From the NCBI GenBank assembly GCA_040752125.1, contig JBFMFK010000003.1, forward strand, positions 19,034 to 83,033: a DNA stretch of 64,000 nucleotides. Direction: 5' to 3'. Positions within the stretch are counted from its first letter, which is position 1. Every line of letters starts with the position of its first letter. Below, in pieces: positions 13,756-64,000 of the stretch. A program made the position numbers and the translations under genes. The DNA comes from Patescibacteria group bacterium. Its GTDB lineage: Bacteria; Patescibacteriota; Minisyncoccia; UBA9983. Below the pieces are notes generated by a model that made no database searches, was not told the DNA's origin, and was given only the letters and a program-made list of their open reading frames with translations.

Positions 13756-13765
13756 CTTAACAAAC

Positions 13766-13860
13766 ATAAAAAAGTTTTTCAAAAATATTATAATAAATAA
13801 AAAATCCGAAATCCGAAATCCTAAACAAATTTCAATGAATCAAATCCCAAATTCAAATTA
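13766..13860. repeat. ~95-nt leader repeat R1 (AAAAAGTTTTTCAAAAATATTATAATAAA...AAATCCGAAATCCGAAATCCTAAACAAATTTCAATGAATCAAATCC), duplicated at 14521..14611
   Basis: The two copies are about 90% identical, each placed directly upstream of an operon start. Each contains a TATAAT and a triple AAATCCN direct repeat. Confidence 0.85.
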
Positions 13861-14504: not shown

Positions 14505-14520
14505 TTATGAGATGAGAAAA

Positions 14521-14611
14521 TATAAAAAAGTTTTTCAAAAATATTATAATAAAAAATCCTAAATCCTAAATCCTAAACAAATTTCAATGAATCAAATCCT
14601 AAAATCCAAAC
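14521..14611. repeat. leader repeat R2 (copy of R1)
   Basis: See R1. Confidence 0.85.
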
Positions 14612-27998: not shown

Positions 27999-29465
27999 AT
28001 GAGTTCGTTTGAGGAATTACGGAAAGGGAGATTGGAAAAATTAAATCTTCTCAGAGAAAAAGGCGTGGACCCTTTTCCTATATCCATTCGGAGAGATTTT
28101 TCTATTATTGAGGCATTAAAAGATTTTCCCAAATTATCCAAAAAGAAAAAACAATCTTTTGTCTGCGGAAGGGTAATGGCGATACGCGAGCACGGGGGCT
28201 CTATTTTTTTTGACATTAGTGACGGTGACGCAATAATGCAGGCCTATATCAAAAAAGATGAAATAGGAAAGGAACAATTTTCTCTTTTTCAAGAAACCAT
28301 TGATATCGGTGATTTTGTAGAGCTTAAAGGATTATTTTTTAAGACAAAGAAAAAGGAAAAAACAATAAAAGTTTCTCAATGGAGGATTATCGCAAAATCC
28401 TTAAGACCTTTGCCGGACAAATGGCACGGCTTGCAGGATGTTGAAGAAAGATTCAGAAAAAGATATCTGGATTTATTGATGAACAAAGAAATAAAAGGAA
28501 GATTTTTGCTGCGTTCTAAAATTATCTCAGAGATGAGAAACTATCTTGATAAAGAAGGTTTTCTGGAAGTGGAAACGCCGGTTTTGCAGCATTTGGCAGG
28601 CGGAGCATTGGCCGAGCCTTTTAAAACCCATCATAATGCTTTGGATATAGATTTATATCTCCGCATTGCGCCTGAACTTTATTTAAAAAAATTATTGATT
28701 GGAGAATTTACAAAAATTTATGAAATAGGAAGAAATTTCAGAAATGAGGGGATTGATGTTACTCATAATCCTGAATTTACCATGCTTGAATTGTACGAAG
28801 CATATAGAGACGCGGAATATTTAAGAAAATTTTCAGAAAAAATGATAAAAACTATAGTCAAGAAGATTTTGGGTAAAAAAGAATTTGAATTTAGAGCAGA
28901 GAAGATATCTTTTAGAAAAAAATTCAATATTGTTTCCTATTTAGATATTCTTAAGTATTATACTTTAATAATTGAACCAGAAAAAATGTCGCGCGAAGAT
29001 TTTGTGCTGAAATCTAAGCAATTTGGAATCAAGACAGAAGATTTTGAGACTAAAGAAAAAATAATGGACAATATTTTTAAAAAAATATGCCGGCCAAAAA
29101 TAATCCAGCCGACATTTGTTATTGACTACCCAACAGGATCATCGCCTTTAGCCAAAAGAAAGGAAAAAGATAAAAACTTAATTGACAGATTTCAATTGAT
29201 AATAGGCGGCTTGGAAATTATTAATGGCTTTTCTGAACTTAATGACCCTCTTGAACAAAAAGAAAGATTTAAAGAACAGGATAAAGCCAAAGAAAAAGGA
29301 GAAAAAGAAGTTTCTCCCAGTGATGAGGATTATCTTGAAGCAATAGAATACGGACTGCCGCCAGCTGCCGGTCTTGGTGTCGGCATAGACCGTCTGGTTA
29401 TGCTTCTTGCCAATACTCACAACATTCGCGAAGTCATTCTTTTCCCGACCTTAAGACCAAAATAA
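27999..29465 (+). CDS. lysS: lysyl-tRNA synthetase, class II
   Basis: An OB-fold N-terminus is followed by FLEVETPVLQ, and the C-terminus ends in GLGVGIDRLVMLL. Confidence 0.9.
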   Translation: MSSFEELRKGRLEKLNLLREKGVDPFPISIRRDFSIIEALKDFPKLSKKKKQSFVCGRVMAIREHGGSIFFDISDGDAIMQAYIKKDEIGKEQFSLFQETIDIGDFVELKGLFFKTKKKEKTIKVSQWRIIAKSLRPLPDKWHGLQDVEERFRKRYLDLLMNKEIKGRFLLRSKIISEMRNYLDKEGFLEVETPVLQHLAGGALAEPFKTHHNALDIDLYLRIAPELYLKKLLIGEFTKIYEIGRNFRNEGIDVTHNPEFTMLELYEAYRDAEYLRKFSEKMIKTIVKKILGKKEFEFRAEKISFRKKFNIVSYLDILKYYTLIIEPEKMSREDFVLKSKQFGIKTEDFETKEKIMDNIFKKICRPKIIQPTFVIDYPTGSSPLAKRKEKDKNLIDRFQLIIGGLEIINGFSELNDPLEQKERFKEQDKAKEKGEKEVSPSDEDYLEAIEYGLPPAAGLGVGIDRLVMLLANTHNIREVILFPTLRPK

Positions 29466-29596
29466 TCTATTTAGCATCCGCATCCGATTTTCGATTTTCG
29501 ATGTTTAATCGAACTTATATTTGCTATAGCAGATATAAGTACATTTAAATATAAATACATTACAAATGTTACCTTTTTTTATTCACTAAATTCCTT

Positions 29597-29699
29597 TGTG
29601 GAAGTTATCCACAATCTTTTATTTGGAAAATAAAGAAAAGTGGAGTATAGTGTTAATAAAGTGGTAGATTGTGGATAATTGTGTGGATAATGTGGATAA
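29597..29699. promoter_or_regulatory. DnaA-box cluster: TTATCCACA (29605..29613) and three TGTGGATAA (29670..29678, 29682..29690, 29691..29699) plus a 2-mismatch box at 29597; adjacent AT-rich tract 29536..29590
   Basis: Four perfect 9-mers matching the E. coli/B. subtilis DnaA-box consensus fall within 95 bp, immediately upstream of mraZ. Confidence 0.6.
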
Positions 29700-29723: not shown

Positions 29724-30158
29724 ATGCTTATTGGTGAATACAAACATAGTCTTGACCCTAAGAAAAGGGTAGCCATCCCTGCAAAATTTAGAAAGGAAAT
29801 AGGAAAAAAAGCAGTAATCACTCGAGGATTAGATCAGTGTCTTTTCATATATCCAATGAATGAATGGGGAAAGGTGGCCGAAAAACTTAGCGAGCTACCG
29901 ACCGGCTCATCTGATACAAGAAATTTCGTCCGCCTTTTCCTGTCAGGTGCAAGTGATGTAGAAATTGATGCTTTAGGAAGAGTCTTGATTCCGGATTATC
30001 TTAAAAAATTTGCCGGCCTGAAGGAAAAAGCAGTTATTGTAGGTATGCATAAGCGATTAGAAATATGGAGCGAGGAGAACTGGGAGAATTATAAACAGCG
30101 CATAGAAAAACAGACAGACATTCTGGCAGAAAAATTAGGAGAATTAGGAGTATATTAA
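29724..30158 (+). CDS. mraZ: transcriptional regulator MraZ
   Basis: The N-terminus reads GEYKHSLDPKKRVAIPAKFR and the duplicated MraZ fold is present. It is the first gene of the dcw cluster. Confidence 0.9.
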   Translation: MLIGEYKHSLDPKKRVAIPAKFRKEIGKKAVITRGLDQCLFIYPMNEWGKVAEKLSELPTGSSDTRNFVRLFLSGASDVEIDALGRVLIPDYLKKFAGLKEKAVIVGMHKRLEIWSEENWENYKQRIEKQTDILAEKLGELGVY

Positions 30159-43520: not shown

Positions 43521-43550
43521 GGCTTGCCCTGCGAAGCTTCAGCGAAGTGG

Positions 43551-43622
43551 GACCTCTTCGTCTAGTGGTTAGGACACATGGTTCTCAGCCATGCAACACG
43601 GGTTCGACTCCCGTAGAGGTCA
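43551..43622 (+). tRNA. tRNA-Glu (anticodon CUC)
   Basis: Cloverleaf drawn by hand. The acceptor stem is GACCTCT/AGAGGTC. The anticodon stem is CATGG/CCATG with loop TTCTCAG, and the T-arm is ACGGG-TTCGACT-CCCGT. Confidence 0.85.
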
Positions 43623-43639
43623 ATGCTATAATAAGACCA

Positions 43640-46306
43640 ATGTTAAGACAGGCAATTGCTTGGCATAGTTTGGATTTAAAAGAAATAAAAAAACAATTGG
43701 CGACTGATTTTAGCAATGGTTTAAGTGAAAAAGAAGCGCAAAAGCGGCAGAAACATTACGGCAAAAATCTTTTTGAGAAAAAAAAGAAATTTTATTATCT
43801 TAAACTTTTATGGAAGCAAATAAAAAGCCCCCTTATTTTTATCTTAATCATCGCCGGCCTTATCACTCTCATTTTAAAAGAATATGCTAACACTACTGTT
43901 ATTTTCATCGCTGTTTTTATAAATACTTTAATGGGCATCTTTCAGGAAGGTCGGAGTTCGCGGGCTTTTGAAAAATTGCAAGCATCACAGAAAAAATACG
44001 CCACCCTTGTCAGGGAGGGTAGAAAAAAAATAATAGAATCTTCCGAACTTGTTCCCGGCGATATTATTGAAATCCAAATGGGGAATCAGGTGCCAGCGGA
44101 TGCCCGCATCATAGAATCAAAGAGGTTGGAAGCCAATGAAGCAGTTTTAACAGGGGAATGGCTGCCAGTCAAAAAAGACAATCAAAAATCTCTGCCTGAG
44201 AAAACACATATCACTGACAGGAGCAATATGTTGTGGATGGGGAGTTTGGTGACAGAGGGGTGGGGAAGAGGCGTTGTTGCAGATACGGGTTTCAACAGCC
44301 AAGTCGGCCGCATCGCTGAATTTATAAGCGGAGAAGATACGGTTGTTACGCCGCTTCAAAAAAATACAAAAAAATTGGCTAAGTTTCTGAGTTTTATCGT
44401 TGTTTTGTCGCTGTTGGTTTTGATCATCCTGGGTTTGTGGCGGGGCCAGAACTTTTTTGGCATATTTTTAACTGCTGTAGCTCTGGCAGTGTCAGCTATT
44501 CCCGAGGGCCTGCCAGTGGCAGTGACAGTGGTTTTAGCAATAGGAATGCAGAAAATTTTTTCCAAAAACGGCCTGCTGAAAAATTTAGATTCAGCAGAAA
44601 CCCTTGGTTCCACTTCTCTCATTCTCACTGACAAAACCGGCACCCTTACAAAGGCAGAGATGAATGTGGAAAAAATCATTACTTTGCTTTCCGAAGAAAA
44701 CAAATTAAAGCCAAAAGAACACAAAGACAGATTGGCTGTTTTAGAGATGGCTTTGCTAGCCACTGAAGCATTTATAGAAAATCCTCAAGATAATCTCGGA
44801 GAATGGATTATTAGAGGAAATCCAATGGGGAGGGCAATTTTTCTGGCTTCCTTGGAATCAGATATCCAGCCTTTGGTCTTGCAAAAAGAGCATAAGCGCA
44901 TTGATTTTATACCTTTTGACGCGGGCAGAAGATATGCCGCTTCCTTATATAAAAAAAATAATCAGGAATCTTATATTTTTGTCATTGGCGCGCCAGAAGT
45001 TATTCTTCAGTTTTGCAACAAAATTTACAAAAAAGAAAAGGAAATTGCTCTTAGCGAACCAATACTCAAATTATTAAACAAGGCCTCTTTGGAAGAAACC
45101 TCAAAAGGCGCGAGAATTTTAGCTGTGGCTTACAGAAAGGCAGATTGGGATTCTTTTCCCAGAGAGCAAGAGAAGAAACATAAGGAAATTTTTTCAAAGA
45201 TGACCTTGGGAGGATTTATTGCCTTTCATGACCCCTTAAGAGAGAATGCCAAGCAGTATTTGCAAGAGTCAAAGGAAGCATCTATAAGAACTGTGCTGGT
45301 AACCGGCGACCATGTGGAAACCGCTAAAAAAATCGGAGAGGAAGTCGGAATTTTACGCAAAAACGGACTTGTTTTAACAGGAGATGAGTTAGAAAAAATG
45401 AGCGACAAAGAACTCGAGGAGATAATCGGAAAAGTAGATATTTTTGCTCGAGTCCTGCCCCAGCAAAAAATGAGAATTTCAAATTTCTGGCAGCAAAGAG
45501 GGGAAATAGTGGCTATGACCGGCGACGGAGTTAATGACGCGCCTGCCTTAAAGCACGCTGATATCGGAATTGCTCTTGGTTCAGGCACCGAGGTGGCAAA
45601 AGAAGCGTCAGATTTAATTCTTTTAAATGATAGTTTTAATACTATTGTGGAGGCAGTTAAGGAAGGAAGAAGAATCATGGATAATTTAAGAAAAATTATT
45701 ACCTATCTTTTGTCAACGTCTTTCAGTGAAATCGTCTTAGTGGCGAGCTCCATTCTGGTTGGCGCGCCATTGCCAATTCTGCCTGCGCAAATTCTCTGGG
45801 TCAATATCATAGAGGAAGGTTTTATGAATTTTGCCTTTGCTTTTGAGCAGGCTGAAGAGAATATTTTAAAAAGAGACCCCAAAAAAGAATGCAGCAGGGC
45901 AATTTTGACAACACGAATAAAAAAAATGATTTTGATAATAGTGGCAATAACCAGTCTTTTGCTTATCTCTGTATTTTTTTTCTTAGATTATAAAAATTAT
46001 CCCCTGGAAAAAGTAAGAACGGTTATGTTTGGGGCTATGGCCATAGATGCAATATTTTTCAGTTTTTCCCTCAAGAATCTGCGAAAGCCGGTTTGGAAAA
46101 TCAATATCTTTTCCAACATTTATCTTCTTTTCTCGCTATCAGTCAGTATTTTTCTTTTGCTGAGTGTTTTATTTATTCCTTTTCTGCAAAAATTGCTTTC
46201 TGTTGTTTCGCTTAGTTTTTTAGAATTAATGATTATTTTTATTATCGGCTTTTTGAATCTTTTGACCATAGAAACAGTAAAATATTTCGTCTTTAGAAAA
46301 CAATAA
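43640..46306 (+). CDS. P-type Ca2+-transporting ATPase (P2-type)
   Basis: DKTGTLT, TGDGVNDAPALK and the PEGLP TM4 motif are present. The supplied ORF (from 43547) reads through tRNA-Glu, so the start is taken at ATG 43640 (MLRQAIAWHSLDLKEIKK…). Confidence 0.85.
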   Translation: MLRQAIAWHSLDLKEIKKQLATDFSNGLSEKEAQKRQKHYGKNLFEKKKKFYYLKLLWKQIKSPLIFILIIAGLITLILKEYANTTVIFIAVFINTLMGIFQEGRSSRAFEKLQASQKKYATLVREGRKKIIESSELVPGDIIEIQMGNQVPADARIIESKRLEANEAVLTGEWLPVKKDNQKSLPEKTHITDRSNMLWMGSLVTEGWGRGVVADTGFNSQVGRIAEFISGEDTVVTPLQKNTKKLAKFLSFIVVLSLLVLIILGLWRGQNFFGIFLTAVALAVSAIPEGLPVAVTVVLAIGMQKIFSKNGLLKNLDSAETLGSTSLILTDKTGTLTKAEMNVEKIITLLSEENKLKPKEHKDRLAVLEMALLATEAFIENPQDNLGEWIIRGNPMGRAIFLASLESDIQPLVLQKEHKRIDFIPFDAGRRYAASLYKKNNQESYIFVIGAPEVILQFCNKIYKKEKEIALSEPILKLLNKASLEETSKGARILAVAYRKADWDSFPREQEKKHKEIFSKMTLGGFIAFHDPLRENAKQYLQESKEASIRTVLVTGDHVETAKKIGEEVGILRKNGLVLTGDELEKMSDKELEEIIGKVDIFARVLPQQKMRISNFWQQRGEIVAMTGDGVNDAPALKHADIGIALGSGTEVAKEASDLILLNDSFNTIVEAVKEGRRIMDNLRKIITYLLSTSFSEIVLVASSILVGAPLPILPAQILWVNIIEEGFMNFAFAFEQAEENILKRDPKKECSRAILTTRIKKMILIIVAITSLLLISVFFFLDYKNYPLEKVRTVMFGAMAIDAIFFSFSLKNLRKPVWKINIFSNIYLLFSLSVSIFLLLSVLFIPFLQKLLSVVSLSFLELMIIFIIGFLNLLTIETVKYFVFRKQ

Positions 46307-47275: not shown

Positions 47276-47319
47276 AATTTTATAAGATTATTCATTATAT
47301 TTATAAAATTAAGATTATT

Positions 47320-47347
47320 AAGTATTTCTACGATCGTAACTATACTT
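47320..47347. promoter_or_regulatory. 28-bp palindrome AAGTAT-ttc-TACGATCGTA-act-ATACTT overlapping the -35 region of the PaaX-like gene promoter (extended -10 TGTATAAT at 47362..47369, start codon 6 nt later)
   Basis: Direct read. A related copy, AAGTATTCTTACGATCGTAGCGATATTT, lies downstream of the gene at 47955..47982. Confidence 0.5.
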
Positions 47348-47375
47348 AATAGTTGTATTTTTGTATAATTGAGCT

Positions 47376-47927
47376 ATGGCAAGATATAGTCCCTATAGAA
47401 AAAAGATTCTTTTAATGCTTTTGGCTGGTGTGGCTTTAGGATTGACTTATTCTCCGAGAGGTCAAAAAAAGATTCTGAAAGCATTTATAAAAGATTGGAA
47501 AAATATAGAACGCGACAGATTATATTATCTACTGAATGAGTTTAAATATGAACGGCTGATAGATTATCAAGAATCAAGTAATGGAACAATCAAGGTTATA
47601 TTAACTGAAAATGGTAAGAAAAAAGCGCTTCAGTATGACTTTGATGAAATAAAAATTAAAAAACCAAGTCAATGGGATGGTAAATGGAGATTGGTTATAT
47701 TTGACATTCCGGAGCGAATTAGAAAAGGGAGGGATGCTTTAAGAGATAAATTAAAAGACCTTGATTTTTATGAATTGCAAAAAAGTGTCTGGGTTCATCC
47801 GTATCCTTGCGAAGATGAGATTAATTTTATAACCGAAGTTTTTGACTTAAGATCTTATATTAGATTTGCTGAAATAATAAAAATTACAAATGAAGCAAAA
47901 TTAAAATTGCATTTTAAATTATATTAA
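47376..47927 (+). CDS. PaaX-like small transcriptional regulator (N-terminal winged helix + WDGKW…VIFDIPE C-terminal domain), paralog 1
   Basis: WDGKWRLVIFDIPE matches the PaaX middle-domain hallmark WDGKW. It is 45% identical to the minus-strand paralog at 63205..63759. Confidence 0.6.
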   Translation: MARYSPYRKKILLMLLAGVALGLTYSPRGQKKILKAFIKDWKNIERDRLYYLLNEFKYERLIDYQESSNGTIKVILTENGKKKALQYDFDEIKIKKPSQWDGKWRLVIFDIPERIRKGRDALRDKLKDLDFYELQKSVWVHPYPCEDEINFITEVFDLRSYIRFAEIIKITNEAKLKLHFKLY

Positions 47928-48042
47928 ATTGTGCATCGCGCATAAGTATTAAGTATTCTTACGATCGTAGCGATATTTCATAGTTTAGCTGGCTAGCTGG
48001 TTAGTTGATTAAATTAGATTTAAATGGAAAATGGAAAACAAA

Positions 48043-52686: not shown

Positions 52687-53184
52687 TTAATTTTTACCTG
52701 TCAGTTCTTTCCAGTGAGTCTTTGGTCGTAGACGTTTAGATCCCTGTTTGCATAAAGCACATTCTTCTGGTGGCACTGCCCAGATTTCTTTTTCTATCAA
52801 AGCAACAATGAGTCTTTTACCATAATAATCAATTGGCAGTTTTGGCGGCCGATGGACAAGAATACCAACATAAGGAAGAAAATTAACTGGATTTGGGTTC
52901 CCTTCTCTTATTGCTCTCTCTACCTCATTAAGGGTATGAGCAGTAGTTGTAAGTTCCTCAATTTGTAAGACTGAATCTCCTTCTGGGATTGCCATTCTTT
53001 TCCATATCATTTTTTTACCTTTTGGATCAGTTGGGTCTTTTTCTACGCACATATTGATAGGTGCACTAATGGCTCTAGCCACATCGTGGGCAAAAGTAAT
53101 TCCAGCCATAGGAGAACCTATTACCCAATCAACTCTGGTGTCAATTTTGCTGTAAGCAATAATCTTACGGATTTTTTCCCCCAA
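52687..53184 (-). CDS. type I phosphoribosyltransferase-fold protein (PRPP-binding-like motif VLQIEELTTTAHTL), TTG start
   Basis: The supplied ORF starts at a TTG. There is no ATG in the in-frame upstream stretch up to the stop at 53281. VIGSPMAGITFAHDVA and LQIEELTTTAHT resemble PRTase loops. Confidence 0.45.
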   Translation of the reverse strand: MGEKIRKIIAYSKIDTRVDWVIGSPMAGITFAHDVARAISAPINMCVEKDPTDPKGKKMIWKRMAIPEGDSVLQIEELTTTAHTLNEVERAIREGNPNPVNFLPYVGILVHRPPKLPIDYYGKRLIVALIEKEIWAVPPEECALCKQGSKRLRPKTHWKELTGKN

Positions 53185-53350
53185 CTGGTCTGCTAGGATA
53201 TCAGAAAGATTAATATATTTGAGAACTCGTAAGCAATCGAAGAACCCAATAATATTCCTAACATTTTGAAGTAAATTTTGTCAACTATCCCCTATTCCAT
53301 GCCATAGTAATGAATAGATGACAATATGTCGCAAAATAAAGTGAACATTT

Positions 53351-53371
53351 ATCTGCGATAGCAAGTATATG
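53351..53371. promoter_or_regulatory. 21-nt core ATCTGCGATAGCAAGTATATG (copy a), identical to 63154..63174 and related to 63809..63829
   Basis: Exact 21/21 match with the copy upstream of rplU. It lies about 170 nt upstream of the minus-strand PRTase gene. Confidence 0.6.
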
Positions 53372-53437
53372 TACATTATCTCAAAAAATCTCAAAAGAAA
53401 AATTAAAAATAAAAAAGCAGCATCTTTCAACCACCTT

Positions 53438-53821
53438 TTATTTCAACCCTTTGCAGTTGGAAGCAGGGACATAGCCGGCCTTGCGTGCCTCTTCTATGGA
53501 AGAAAACCAAATTTTATTTTCTTCTTTTATTTGCTGAGCACCGCCACACCAAGGATAGTGGTATTTAGTGCCGTTTTTAGAAGCCACAACACTTCCGTGC
53601 GAATCGAAACCGGGTTTCGATTCTATCATAAGGTTGGCACTCAAATTTTCTATGGTTATAGGTACTCTATTTTCCCTTATTTTTGATAATCTGCCCAAGC
53701 CAAAACTAATCAAGGCAACAAGAATAATAACCATTACTAAAAGAATATCTTTTTCATAAGATTGAATTTTGGATTTGCATTTTTTTACGGTTTCTGTTAA
53801 CATATAAGGAATATGGCTCAT
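53438..53821 (-). CDS. membrane-anchored hypothetical protein with C-terminal KYHYPWC…[12 protein letters not shown]…C domain
   Basis: It has one TM helix. The C-terminal motif resembles a small Cys-containing domain seen at the ends of many Firmicutes/CPR membrane proteins. It is preferred over the implausible overlapping plus-strand ORF 53369..53686. Confidence 0.4.
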
Positions 53822-54091
53822 CGTAAAGCTGGTGGTACAGCTAAAAACTTAAGAGATTCACAGCCGAAATTTTTAGGCGTAAAACTTTATGGCGGTCATT
53901 CTGCAAAGCCTGGGTCTATTTTGGTTCGCCAGCGCGGTACGCAGATACTTCCCGGAAATAATGTCAAAATGGGGAAAGATCATACTTTATATGCTGTTAA
54001 TGCTGGCATTGTGAAATTCACAGAAAAAAGAAAAACAAGATTTGACAGAAAAATTCGGAGATATAAAATTGTTAATGTTATCCCCTCTTAG
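53813..54091 (+). CDS. rpmA: 50S ribosomal protein L27
   Basis: The N-terminus reads [17 protein letters not shown]. Confidence 0.9.
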
Positions 54092-62717: not shown

Positions 62718-63038
62718 TTAGGATTTGATATCCAAAATCTTGATTTTAATATATCTCTGTCTATGACCCCTTTTTACTCGGTAACGGGTTTTTGGTTTAT
62801 ATTTTAATATTATTACCTTTTTTGCCCTTCCTTCCTCTTCCACTTTTGCTTCTACTTTTGCTCCCTCTACAAAAGGAGTACCGATTCTTATATTTTCTCC
62901 ATTGACAACTAAAAGCACTTTATCAAAAACAATATCGCCGTTTTTTACGGCCTTTATTTTCTCTATTTTTATTTTATCTCCCTGCTTAACCAAATATTGC
63001 TTCCCTCCAGTTTGTATAACCGCAATTTCATTGTTCAT
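62718..63038 (-). CDS. rplU: 50S ribosomal protein L21
   Basis: The N-terminus reads IAVIQTGGKQYLVKQGDKI and the C-terminus GHRQRYIKIKI. Confidence 0.9.
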   Translation of the reverse strand: MNNEIAVIQTGGKQYLVKQGDKIKIEKIKAVKNGDIVFDKVLLVVNGENIRIGTPFVEGAKVEAKVEEEGRAKKVIILKYKPKTRYRVKRGHRQRYIKIKILDIKS

Positions 63039-63147: not shown

Positions 63148-63181
63148 TTACCATATATCTGCGATAGCAAGTATATGGTAA
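63148..63181. promoter_or_regulatory. TTACCATATA-TCTGCGATAGCAAG-TATATGGTAA: perfect 10-bp inverted arms around the 14-nt core; copy b, upstream of rplU and downstream of PaaX-like paralog 2
   Basis: Direct read. Confidence 0.6.
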
Positions 63182-63204
63182 TCTATGTACTGCTCTATTT
63201 AAAT

Positions 63205-63759
63205 TTATAATAAATCAAAATGTTTTTTTAAATGCAATTCATTATCTATTGAATCAGCAATAATGAATCTTACAAATTTTCTTATATCATAAAATTCTAT
63301 AAGGTAATCTATTTCATTTTTACAATCGTAGGGGTGAACAAAAACACTCTTTTGAAATTCATAAAATGCCAATTGTTTCAAATAAAATCGTAAAGCTTCT
63401 CTTATCTTTTTTCTCTTTTCAGGAATATCAAAAAGCACTACTCGCCATTTTTTATCCCATTTTTGTGGCTTTTTAATTTTCATTTTATCCAGATCATAAG
63501 TGAGAGCTTTTTGTTTTCCTTTATCAGTGAGAATTATTGTTAAAGTCCCATCTAGATTTTGTCTTTCCGCAACCAGTTTTGATTCATATAAACTTTTTAT
63601 TGCTCTTCTAAGTGCCCGCACTTCAATCTCTTTCCATTCTTTACTCATGCCCTTAAGAATCTGAAAATATCTTTTTGGCGAGCCAGAAAGTCCTAAAGCT
63701 AAACCACCTAAAAGCAAAAGCAATATTTTTTGTTGTATTTCTCCCGGTCCTCTTGGCAT
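63205..63759 (-). CDS. PaaX-like small transcriptional regulator, paralog 2
   Basis: WDKKWRVVLFDIPE is present. The architecture matches the 47376 gene. Confidence 0.6.
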   Translation of the reverse strand: MPRGPGEIQQKILLLLLGGLALGLSGSPKRYFQILKGMSKEWKEIEVRALRRAIKSLYESKLVAERQNLDGTLTIILTDKGKQKALTYDLDKMKIKKPQKWDKKWRVVLFDIPEKRKKIREALRFYLKQLAFYEFQKSVFVHPYDCKNEIDYLIEFYDIRKFVRFIIADSIDNELHLKKHFDLL

Positions 63760-63799
63760 AATTCAATTTTATAATTATTTTATAATAATTATAGAACAA

Positions 63800-63832
63800 T
63801 TACCATATACCAGCGATAGCAAATATATGGCA
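63800..63832. promoter_or_regulatory. TTACCATATA-CCAGCGATAGCAAA-TATATGGCA: copy c of the palindrome, immediately upstream of PaaX-like paralog 2 (overlapping its probable -35/-10 region)
   Basis: Direct read. 28 of 33 nt are identical to copy b. Confidence 0.6.
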
Positions 63833-63857
63833 GATTGGATAATAAATTGATTCTTTA

Positions 63858-63892
63858 CGAATAAAAAAGGAGGCGTAAAATTTTAGCCTCCT
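63858..63892 (-). terminator. minus-strand rho-independent terminator (AAGGAGGC-gtaaaatttta-GCCTCCTT, T-run on minus strand) for a gene beyond the right window edge
   Basis: Direct read. On the minus strand the stem is followed by TTTTTTATTCG. Confidence 0.55.
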
Positions 63893-64000
63893 TGTTCTCG
63901 AGGAATACTTATCATTATTATTAGAGCCACTACTATATCCACTCTTCAGACCTCCTTTCAAAAATTTCTATTGTTTTCAAACTCTAAAATCAGGTTATCA

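Follow-up and report, generated by a model that had tools for sequence, protein, structure and literature searches.

The bracketed gene and its product

The window, that is the whole 64,000-nucleotide stretch analysed here, belongs to an A+T-rich contig of the Patescibacteria (candidate phyla radiation, CPR) and carries on its minus strand a gene for a predicted "mini-PaaX" regulator of 184 residues (63205..63759 in the list of open reading frames (ORFs)), referred to below as paralog 2. The gene stands between two copies of a palindrome, each of them a putative operator. The downstream one, copy b (63148..63181, dyad at 63164/63165), starts 23 nucleotides (nt) past the stop codon and reads TTACCATATA-TCTGCGATAGCAAG-TATATGGTAA, with perfect arms of 10 base pairs (bp) around 14 nt. 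The upstream one, copy c (63800..63833, dyad at 63816/63817), was located by reading the sequence and by an arm-pattern scan; it deviates from the arm pattern at 2 positions and has its dyad 57 nt from the ATG. Searching the window with the arms only, at no more than 3 mismatches, returned exactly these two sites, and none in 100 shuffles. The flanking arrangement and the make-up of copy b are as given in a preliminary description of this DNA, whereas the identity between the two copies, put there at 28 of 33 positions, is on recount 29 of 34 (29 of the first 33). Since the 14-nt "core" of copy b is itself a palindrome (TGC-GATA-GCA), a point passed over in the preliminary description, the element as a whole is tripartite. 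The neighbour on the 3' side of paralog 2 is, by synteny, rplU, encoding ribosomal protein L21 (62718..63038, minus strand), whose ATG at 63038 is 110 nt from copy b.

A second member of the same family, paralog 1 (47376..47927, plus strand, 183 residues, 50% identical to paralog 2), is bracketed by a palindrome different from that of copies b and c. Repeat comparison placed its putative operators at 47317..47350 upstream, where the sequence reads ATTAAGTATTTC-TACGATCGTA-ACTATACTTAAT, and at 47948..47981 downstream.

PF20803, the central Cas2-like domain of PaaX, is the only Pfam model that either paralog matches above the model's cut-off of 24 bits (E = 1.2e-21 for paralog 2 and 6.9e-24 for paralog 1). 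The PaaX equivalog model TIGR02277 yields 29.6 bits against a cut-off of 264.55, with a match that spans residues 76-172 only, and two Cas2 models are just missed (TIGR01573, 23.9 versus 24.5 bits; PF09827, 21 versus 23.8 bits). Paralog 1 likewise stays far under the PaaX threshold and narrowly under those of Cas2. Paralog 2 ends at residue 184, directly after the Cas2-like domain, and a PaaX_C match is absent from the Pfam results. In an AlphaFold2 (AF2) model the C-terminal half adopts the Cas2-like beta-alpha-beta-beta-alpha-beta arrangement, and the best Foldseek matches are Cas2 chains and E. coli PaaX (8a39), all of them weak (E 0.015-0.2; template-modelling score 0.5-0.65 on the target). 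Across 75 aligned proteins the residues W101, W105, D111, R120, Q136, S138 and C146, the last within HPY-x-C, are invariant (paralog-2 numbering), and the Cas2-like motifs FDIP...R...Q-x-SVF, with the Asp ending strand 1, are likewise kept in 75 of 75. An invariant cysteine, C146, in an effector-less protein might serve as a redox or ligand switch.

Protein searches returned more than 2,500 relatives, every named source being Patescibacteria, which NCBI annotates as "hypothetical", "PaaX" or "Cas2". When 1.8 billion cluster representatives were searched with a profile, 2,695 clusters (50% identity) were obtained at E<=1e-10, nearly all of 180-200 residues, and at least three paralogs occur in one metagenome-assembled genome (MAG; two at L006 and one at L013). 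A literature search found no publication on this PaaX/Cas2-like family of Patescibacteria and no characterised regulon that it matches, in agreement with the preliminary description. Judged from these sequence matches, paralog 2 belongs to a large, uncharacterised, Patescibacteria-wide family of short PaaX relatives.

Conservation of the bracketed layout

The layout was followed through 21 genome and 80 metagenome loci of Patescibacteria, with 105 family genes in all. For each gene the best shared 24-mer was sought between the upstream and downstream flanks, each taken as 130 nt, at a threshold of at least 19/24. Such a match was found for 87 of the 96 family genes with both flanks, versus 3 of 400 control ORFs from the same loci, and the bracketed layout persists down to 31-40% protein identity. 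Likewise, a generic site detector, which required an xC-NNNN-Gx centre and at least 8 of 10 paired arm positions, reported 149 sites in 811 kb, versus 1-5 in mononucleotide shuffles, with 112 of the sites no more than 140 nt from a family gene. These results support the proposal, made from the window, of a recurring repeat-gene-repeat architecture.

Among the 37 detector sites that do not adjoin a family gene, about 25 look like genuine family sites and the remainder are G+C-rich, terminator-like hairpins. The genuine ones are all intergenic but for one, and their neighbours are varied housekeeping genes (RNase HII, Mur ligases, GH57, mraZ, phosphoribosyltransferase, a nucleoside deoxyribosyltransferase-like gene and, by inspection, nucleoside diphosphate kinase and peptide deformylase). 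At locus L055 (11289-11402) three perfect palindromes stand back to back, of three arm and centre types (ACGATCGT, GCTATCGC, GCGACCGC), directly upstream of a TTGACA-N17-TATATT promoter in a divergent intergenic space beside a Mur ligase gene. One of the three matches the site of the local paralog. This position upstream of a promoter is regulatory-region behaviour, and the arrangement looks like several paralogs converging on one regulatory region. Separately, a solo palindrome of family type, CTTCTCATAATCAGCGATCGCTTGTTATGTGAAG, lies directly after a Mur ligase gene in L106/L107 (~989-1022); in L001, L022, L023, L036 and L037 it is a family gene that follows a Mur-ligase-like gene, in the position of this solo copy.

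A tripartite, two-fold symmetric element

The internal structure of the site was derived from 131 distinct sites aligned on the dyad. The centre (±1-4) is conserved and symmetric, with C at ±3 in 262 of 262 cases, and occurs in forms that include ACGATCGT, GCGATCGC, GCTATCGC, GCTATAGC, CCGATCGG, GCGACCGC, GCTGGAGC, GCTCGAGC, CCTCCAGG and GCCATGGC. The adjoining spacer (±5-7) is unconserved and barely symmetric (0.43-0.48 versus 0.30 expected). The arms (±8-17) are symmetric at 0.68-0.86 (expected 0.3-0.5); they have nearly no family-wide consensus and differ between genomes. The element is a centre with a spacer and an arm on each side, 34 bp in total.

The central four nucleotides are mostly palindromic right up to the dyad (GATC, TATA, TCGA, CATG) or one step off, and an asymmetric centre (TATC/GATA) flips its orientation between the two copies of one locus (L001, L003). 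In combination, these two features argue for two-fold recognition of duplex DNA rather than for an oriented RNA motif or a hairpin loop. Among close relatives (more than 80% N-terminal identity) similarity is 0.77 for the arms and 0.42 for the spacers; thus the arms are kept where the spacers are not, which points to constraint of the arms by the protein.

Covariation between residues and bases

Covariation was measured as mutual information with average product correction, computed from a MAFFT alignment of 75 distinct proteins and one symmetrised half-site for each. At the centre of the site the top pairs link base 4 to residues 117 and 121, and bases 1-2 to residues 114, 137 and 134, all within the Cas2-like domain. 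In the arms, the top partners of bases 13-15 are residues 49, 52 and 65, which belong to the third N-terminal helix or to the stretch behind it, and the residues 48/49/52 of the predicted recognition helix follow the arm bases. The associations at the centre are close to a simple code: position 4 is G in 37 of 40 proteins with K117, A in 25 of 30 with R117 and C in 3 of 3 with N/H117, and at the dyad A accompanies K137 in 63 of 64 and C/G accompanies E137 in 9 of 9 (Fisher p-values: residue 117, 6e-13; residue 137, 1e-10). The two genes of the window differ at these very residues, paralog 1 being R117/D121 and paralog 2 K117/E121.

On a UPGMA (unweighted pair group method with arithmetic mean) tree built without the covarying columns, residue 117 and base 4 each change 23 times, and 16 of the changes share a branch versus about 3.6 expected, the best result of 184 residues. 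Switches recur within close clades (L082/L065, L076/L091, L055/L096, and paralog 2 of the window/L028). Moreover, 8 orthologs at the same chromosomal position carry 4 different centres (GCTATCGC, GCTCGAGC, ACGATCGT, CCTCCAGG), so the protein and both flanking sites switch specificity together, in place. The many independent co-switches bear out the earlier proposal that each paralog has co-evolved its own site.

In the AF2 model, helix alpha-1 (helix 114-129, predicted local distance difference test (pLDDT) 70-85) presents residues 114, 117 and 121 on a single face, flanking the invariant R120, and residue 137 lies between the invariant Q136 and S138. In Cas2 dimers the end of strand 1 is at the dimer interface. 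Residue 114, nearer to the end of strand 1, follows the bases nearer to the dyad, and residues 117 and 121, further along the helix, follow base 4. The covariation suggests that the Cas2-like half reads the middle of the site. When arm similarity was compared with the identity of whole domains, the correlations were 0.36 for the N-terminal and 0.27 for the C-terminal domain and the two were not separable; it was the column-wise analysis that separated them.

A different explanation of the symmetry is that the palindromes act as intrastrand hairpins, in RNA or in single-stranded or cruciform DNA, for example as a 3' stem-loop by which the regulator mRNA is terminated or stabilised, or as a structure bound by the Cas2-like domain. 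Each copy does keep its own self-complementarity: between the two copies of a locus there are 20 compensated double arm changes (permutation mean 3, maximum 9), and in L093 both copies are paired at 17/17 positions yet differ at four arm positions. The downstream copy, moreover, falls within the 3' end of the transcript, and on the sense strand G.T mismatches outnumber A.C mismatches by 38:17 in downstream copies, less so in upstream copies (36:24). However, the upstream copy sits at or before the promoter and so outside the gene's own RNA, and what would be the loop is palindromic to the dyad and flips when asymmetric, as described above for L001 and L003. Pairing is not kept at ±5-7, 58% of the arm mismatches are of the transversion type, unable to wobble-pair, and single uncompensated differences (132) far exceed the compensated ones. 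Arm and centre sequences covary with specific residues, and an Rfam scan of the whole window returned two tRNAs only, with no match to the palindromes. Compensated changes could also arise from quasi-palindrome template-switch mutation without selection. We therefore hold it unlikely that a hairpin is the functional form.

Promoter overlap and proposed autoregulation

Throughout the family the distance from the upstream dyad to the ATG is mostly 45-52 nt, with a second class at about 26 nt. A -10-like hexamer begins 33-35 nt past the dyad, 12-13 nt before the ATG, in 41 of 93 family genes, and a Shine-Dalgarno-like (SD-like) 4-mer is present in 2 of 93. Family genes thus look leaderless, with the proximal arm of the upstream site on the -35 region; in the class at about 26 nt this arm is on the -10 box. 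The window has two candidate -10 hexamers on the minus strand, TATAAT at 63788-63793, 28 nt ahead of the regulator ATG, and TATAAA at 63768-63773, 8 nt ahead of it, the latter in the leaderless geometry typical of the family; a Shine-Dalgarno sequence is absent before paralog 2 as read from the sequence. The gene-proximal arm of copy c abuts or overlaps the -35 region of the predicted promoter, and the overlap between copy c and the promoter region, first proposed on the basis of the TATAAT, is supported. The downstream copy begins 1-40 nt past the regulator stop codon whatever the neighbour, and its dyad is 18-60 nt past the stop codon in most loci. The spacing between upstream and downstream copies (605-758 bp) shows no helical phasing (p 0.3-0.97), which leaves looping unsupported.

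Two further observations concern the promoter regions. Among control ORFs of at least 150 residues in all fetched loci, an SD-like 4-mer at -18 to -5 occurs in 9% and a -10-like hexamer at -15 to -11 in about 27%; leaderless transcription may be common in these Patescibacteria beyond the PaaX-like family. On the minus strand of the window, a G+C-rich hairpin followed by a T-run (63867-63893, AAGGAGGC-N11-GCCTCCTT) was read from the sequence 33 nt before copy c, its 11-nt loop exceeding the limit of the pattern scan, which missed it. The preceding gene probably has its intrinsic terminator in this hairpin, which would then insulate the regulator from upstream read-through in the source genome.

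Further sites of paralog-2 type occur in the window. The 20-nt core of the paralog-2 palindrome is present 4 times, versus 0.02 expected, and the two additional copies, at 53350-53369 and 29516-29535, had been overlooked in the preliminary description. The first belongs to an intergenic orphan site at 53342..53375, TGAACATTTATCTGCGATAGCAAGTATATGTACA, which precedes a phosphoribosyltransferase-like gene (52687-53184, minus strand) by about 170 nt. The second, in which the inner palindrome (TGC-GATA-GCA in copy b) reads TGCTATAGCA, belongs to an orphan site at 29510..29543, CGAACTTATATTTGCTATAGCAGATATAAGTACA, between the end of a tRNA-synthetase-like gene at 29465, whose identity is a prediction, and mraZ at 29724, assigned by inspection.

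In our view these data are best accounted for by an autoregulated mini-PaaX dimer in which a helix-turn-helix (HTH) reads the arms and the Cas2-like domain reads the centre, with the downstream copy as an auxiliary operator, and we consider this model likely. Its starting points are observations: the architecture and its conservation, the positional profile of the site, the overlap with the promoter and the residue-base covariation. A homodimer, probably joined via the Cas2-like domain, would bind the 34-bp tripartite palindrome as duplex DNA. Its two recognition helices (residues ~46-57) would read the outer arms at ±8-17, helix alpha-1 (E114, K117, the invariant R120, E121) and the Q136-K137-S138 turn would read the central xC-NNNN-Gx at ±1-4, and the 3-bp spacers at ±5-7 would go unread. 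Since copy c coincides with the -35/-10 region of the predicted leaderless promoter from which the gene is expressed, the protein most likely represses its own synthesis. Copy b would be a second cognate operator belonging to the regulator gene, and could aid repression through cooperative binding or looping, or insulate the gene by a roadblock of bound protein. The sites at 29510-29543 and 53342-53375 would form a small regulon.

Several points weigh against this model. DNA binding, dimer geometry, oligomeric state, whether regulation is negative or positive, and what the downstream copy does are all things that we infer. The N-terminal domain has no Pfam helix-turn-helix match, its MarR-like profile matches being weak (E 0.1-0.8), and the AF2 model, based on 30 close sequences, has a mean pLDDT of 60, with the N-terminal domain, drawn as three helices and a beta-hairpin (wing), below 50. 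Exceptions to the covariation are found in L099, L100, L014 and L020, and the covariation could be an indirect effect rather than direct contact. The orphan sites lie 60-190 nt upstream of the next genes, off their promoters. Finally, a plain operator model explains neither the excess of compensated changes nor the spacer, which is about 70% identical within a locus versus 0.42 between close orthologs. These last two features call for some further process, to which the G.T over A.C bias of the downstream copies (38:17) points as well. It may be pairing, including a minor role of the transcribed downstream copy as a hairpin, correction by quasi-palindrome template switching, or conversion of one copy by the other. 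Such processes do not overturn the reading of the palindromes as duplex operators.

A more far-reaching variant, which appears improbable to us, is that the Cas2-like dimer not only sits on the dyad and reads the sequence but may also nick or cut there, because the Asp at the catalytic position of Cas2 (D111) is invariant, as are R120, Q136, S138 and C146. If so, the family would consist of site-specific DNA-processing proteins, each bracketed by its own targets, and would represent a living intermediate that links nucleases of the Cas2 type to repressors of the PaaX type. Excision, gene conversion or homogenisation of the unit might in that case proceed through the brackets, and this would account for the compensated changes as well as for the concerted evolution of the two copies.

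Neighbouring genes and descent of the unit

The preliminary description had the palindrome head rplU as a control site. On that reading copy b would primarily be an rplU operator and the regulator would control L21. The unit of gene and palindromes is indeed followed by rplU in 8 loci, all of one clade, that of paralog 2, in the order rmuC-[unit]-rplU-recR-dnaB, and in L024 a distance of 52 nt separates the downstream dyad from the rplU ATG, as in the geometry of an upstream operator. Over the 8 loci, however, this distance ranges from 52 to 150 nt, and apart from L024 it is 95-150 nt and unconserved. Of 86 neighbours 3' of the regulator, 49 are co-directional and 37 convergent, the latter counting against an rplU operator. 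The rplU loci fetched independently of the regulator (L102-L107) bear on the same question. The gene order is the same but the unit is lacking in L102, L105 and L106/L107, where DnaB is 76, 74 and 61% identical to that of the window, versus 60-74% in loci with the unit. No palindrome of family type precedes rplU in the unit-less L102, L105 and L106, nor in L103/L104, which come from the same MAG as L007 and have a same-clade regulator elsewhere. Since the downstream copy follows the regulator stop codon next to any neighbour, and since rplU without the unit has no palindrome, copy b belongs to the regulator and not to rplU. The claim that the palindrome heads rplU is not upheld, and control of L21 through copy b seems to us an unlikely primary function.

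In the unit-less loci the rmuC stop codon is 9-25 nt from the rplU ATG, and rplU is there probably co-transcribed with rmuC; with the unit present, rplU has an upstream region of its own of 100-150 nt. As a separate observation on this gene, rpmA (L27) is encoded on the other strand at 53813-54091 in the window, some 9 kb away from rplU, so that the usual rplU-rpmA operon is split in the source genome.

It had also been suggested that the downstream copy marks the boundary of a movable unit. On such a reading the palindrome-gene-palindrome would be a mobile or selfish cassette ended by repeats, comparable to REP/RAYT, to IS200/IS605-like elements or to a lox-like excisable segment. The presence and absence of the unit between rmuC and rplU is real: it is there in 8 syntenic loci and absent from 3-4, the two states being interleaved by DnaB identity. 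Direct repeats bracket the gene in 87 of 96 cases, solo palindromes occur elsewhere, the neighbouring genes differ between clades, and the 13-8-13 layout resembles that of lox/FRT sites. Hallmarks of transposition are nevertheless missing from the material covered here. There are no near-identical copies, co-resident paralogs being about 50% identical; Pfam detects no transposase or recombinase domain; and no relatives were found in phage, plasmid and IMG/VR collections. The unit-less junctions retain no solo palindrome, no decayed regulator copy was found in the unit-less L106, and the indel exceeds the stretch from palindrome to palindrome, as it also covers some 100-150 nt that hold the promoter of rplU. 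Divergence among the orthologs of the rplU locus roughly parallels that of DnaB (61-84% versus 60-74% identity), and vertical descent with losses is the simpler reading of the history of the unit. Hence the variable presence stands, whereas the movable unit is unlikely, and a repeat-ended selfish cassette strikes us as very improbable.

Comparison with characterised systems

The closest characterised relative is PaaX (PDB 3L09, 8A39), which represses the paa genes of E. coli and Pseudomonas in response to phenylacetyl-CoA and consists of a winged helix-turn-helix, a Cas2-like dimerisation domain and an effector domain. The family shares with it the homologous Cas2-like middle domain PF20803 and the WD(G/K)KW motif, and a DNA-binding domain of winged-helix type is a putative feature of its N-terminus. 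E. coli PaaX binds TGATTC-N27-GAATCA inverted repeats and represses its own promoter by steric hindrance of RNA polymerase (PMC9493321). A dimeric repressor on widely spaced inverted repeats is here predicted as well. In contrast to PaaX, paralog 2 has 184 residues versus about 300 and no C-terminal effector domain, and hence no phenylacetyl-CoA sensing. Further differences are the conserved centre of the site, which covaries with the Cas2-like domain, the bracketing of the gene by two sites, and the expansion into several co-resident paralogs with private specificities. No paa genes are among the few annotated neighbours (rplU, recR, dnaB, rmuC, Mur ligase), for which no dedicated paa scan was made.

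The beta-alpha-beta-beta-alpha-beta fold and the FDIP...R...Q-x-SVF motifs are shared with Cas2 and VapD. Unlike in Cas2, the domain is fused to a predicted DNA-binding domain and appears to read a specific sequence; to our knowledge, Cas2 is not known to do so. No cas1 gene or CRISPR array was seen beside family genes, either in the repeat scan of the window or among annotated neighbours, in which no dedicated search was made.

A gene between cognate operators, with a distal site that adds looping cooperativity, is familiar from lambda cI between OL and OR, from lac O2/O3 and from gal OE/OI, and in heteroimmune phages operator and repressor specificities diversify together. The family resembles these systems in placing a regulator gene between two predicted cognate operators. 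It differs from them in its chromosomal housekeeping context free of phage genes, in showing no phasing signal and in having its second site always directly after the stop codon. REP/RAYT and lox/FRT systems, too, have genes flanked by imperfect palindromes with intergenic solo copies, or sites of about 34 bp with inverted arms and an 8-bp centre. In contrast to them, the family has no HUH/Y1 or tyrosine-recombinase domain in Pfam and a low copy number (4 copies of the core in 64 kb), and in place of an asymmetric crossover spacer its sites have a conserved, symmetric centre.

Patescibacteria have tiny genomes with very few recognisable regulators, and the family may be one of their main groups of transcription factors. 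The "Cas2" label is misleading and can inflate counts of CRISPR components in these lineages. Because each gene carries two copies of its own site, the family offers about 100 natural pairs of protein and predicted operator. The simple recognition code predicted from them (K117/G, R117/A, K137/A-T, E137/G-C) could be useful for regulon prediction in uncultured organisms and for orthogonal repressor/operator pairs. If the covariation reflects direct contact, a Cas2-fold domain would read DNA sequence, a role that we know of in no Cas2 fold, and this would bear on the relation between Cas2 and PaaX.

Additional features of the window

Directly 5' of mraZ, within 95 nt (29605-29699), there are four exact copies of TTATCCACA, the DnaA-box consensus, which occurs 9 times in the whole window. 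Three of the four are part of direct repeats GTGGATAA(T) spaced by 9-12 nt. A replication origin at this cluster was considered and rejected, as there is no GC-skew switch; the motifs may be MraZ or DnaA regulatory boxes. Elsewhere, two intergenic segments of about 95 nt (13762-13857 and 14518-14609) are 92-95% identical and 756 nt apart, and each precedes a small ORF of about 126-129 residues, as if a gene had been duplicated locally, in tandem, along with the sequence before it. Finally, a listed 919-residue ORF with a GTG start (43547-46306) opens with a tRNA (43551-43622; Rfam, 61.8 bits), so the true start of that gene must lie downstream of the tRNA.

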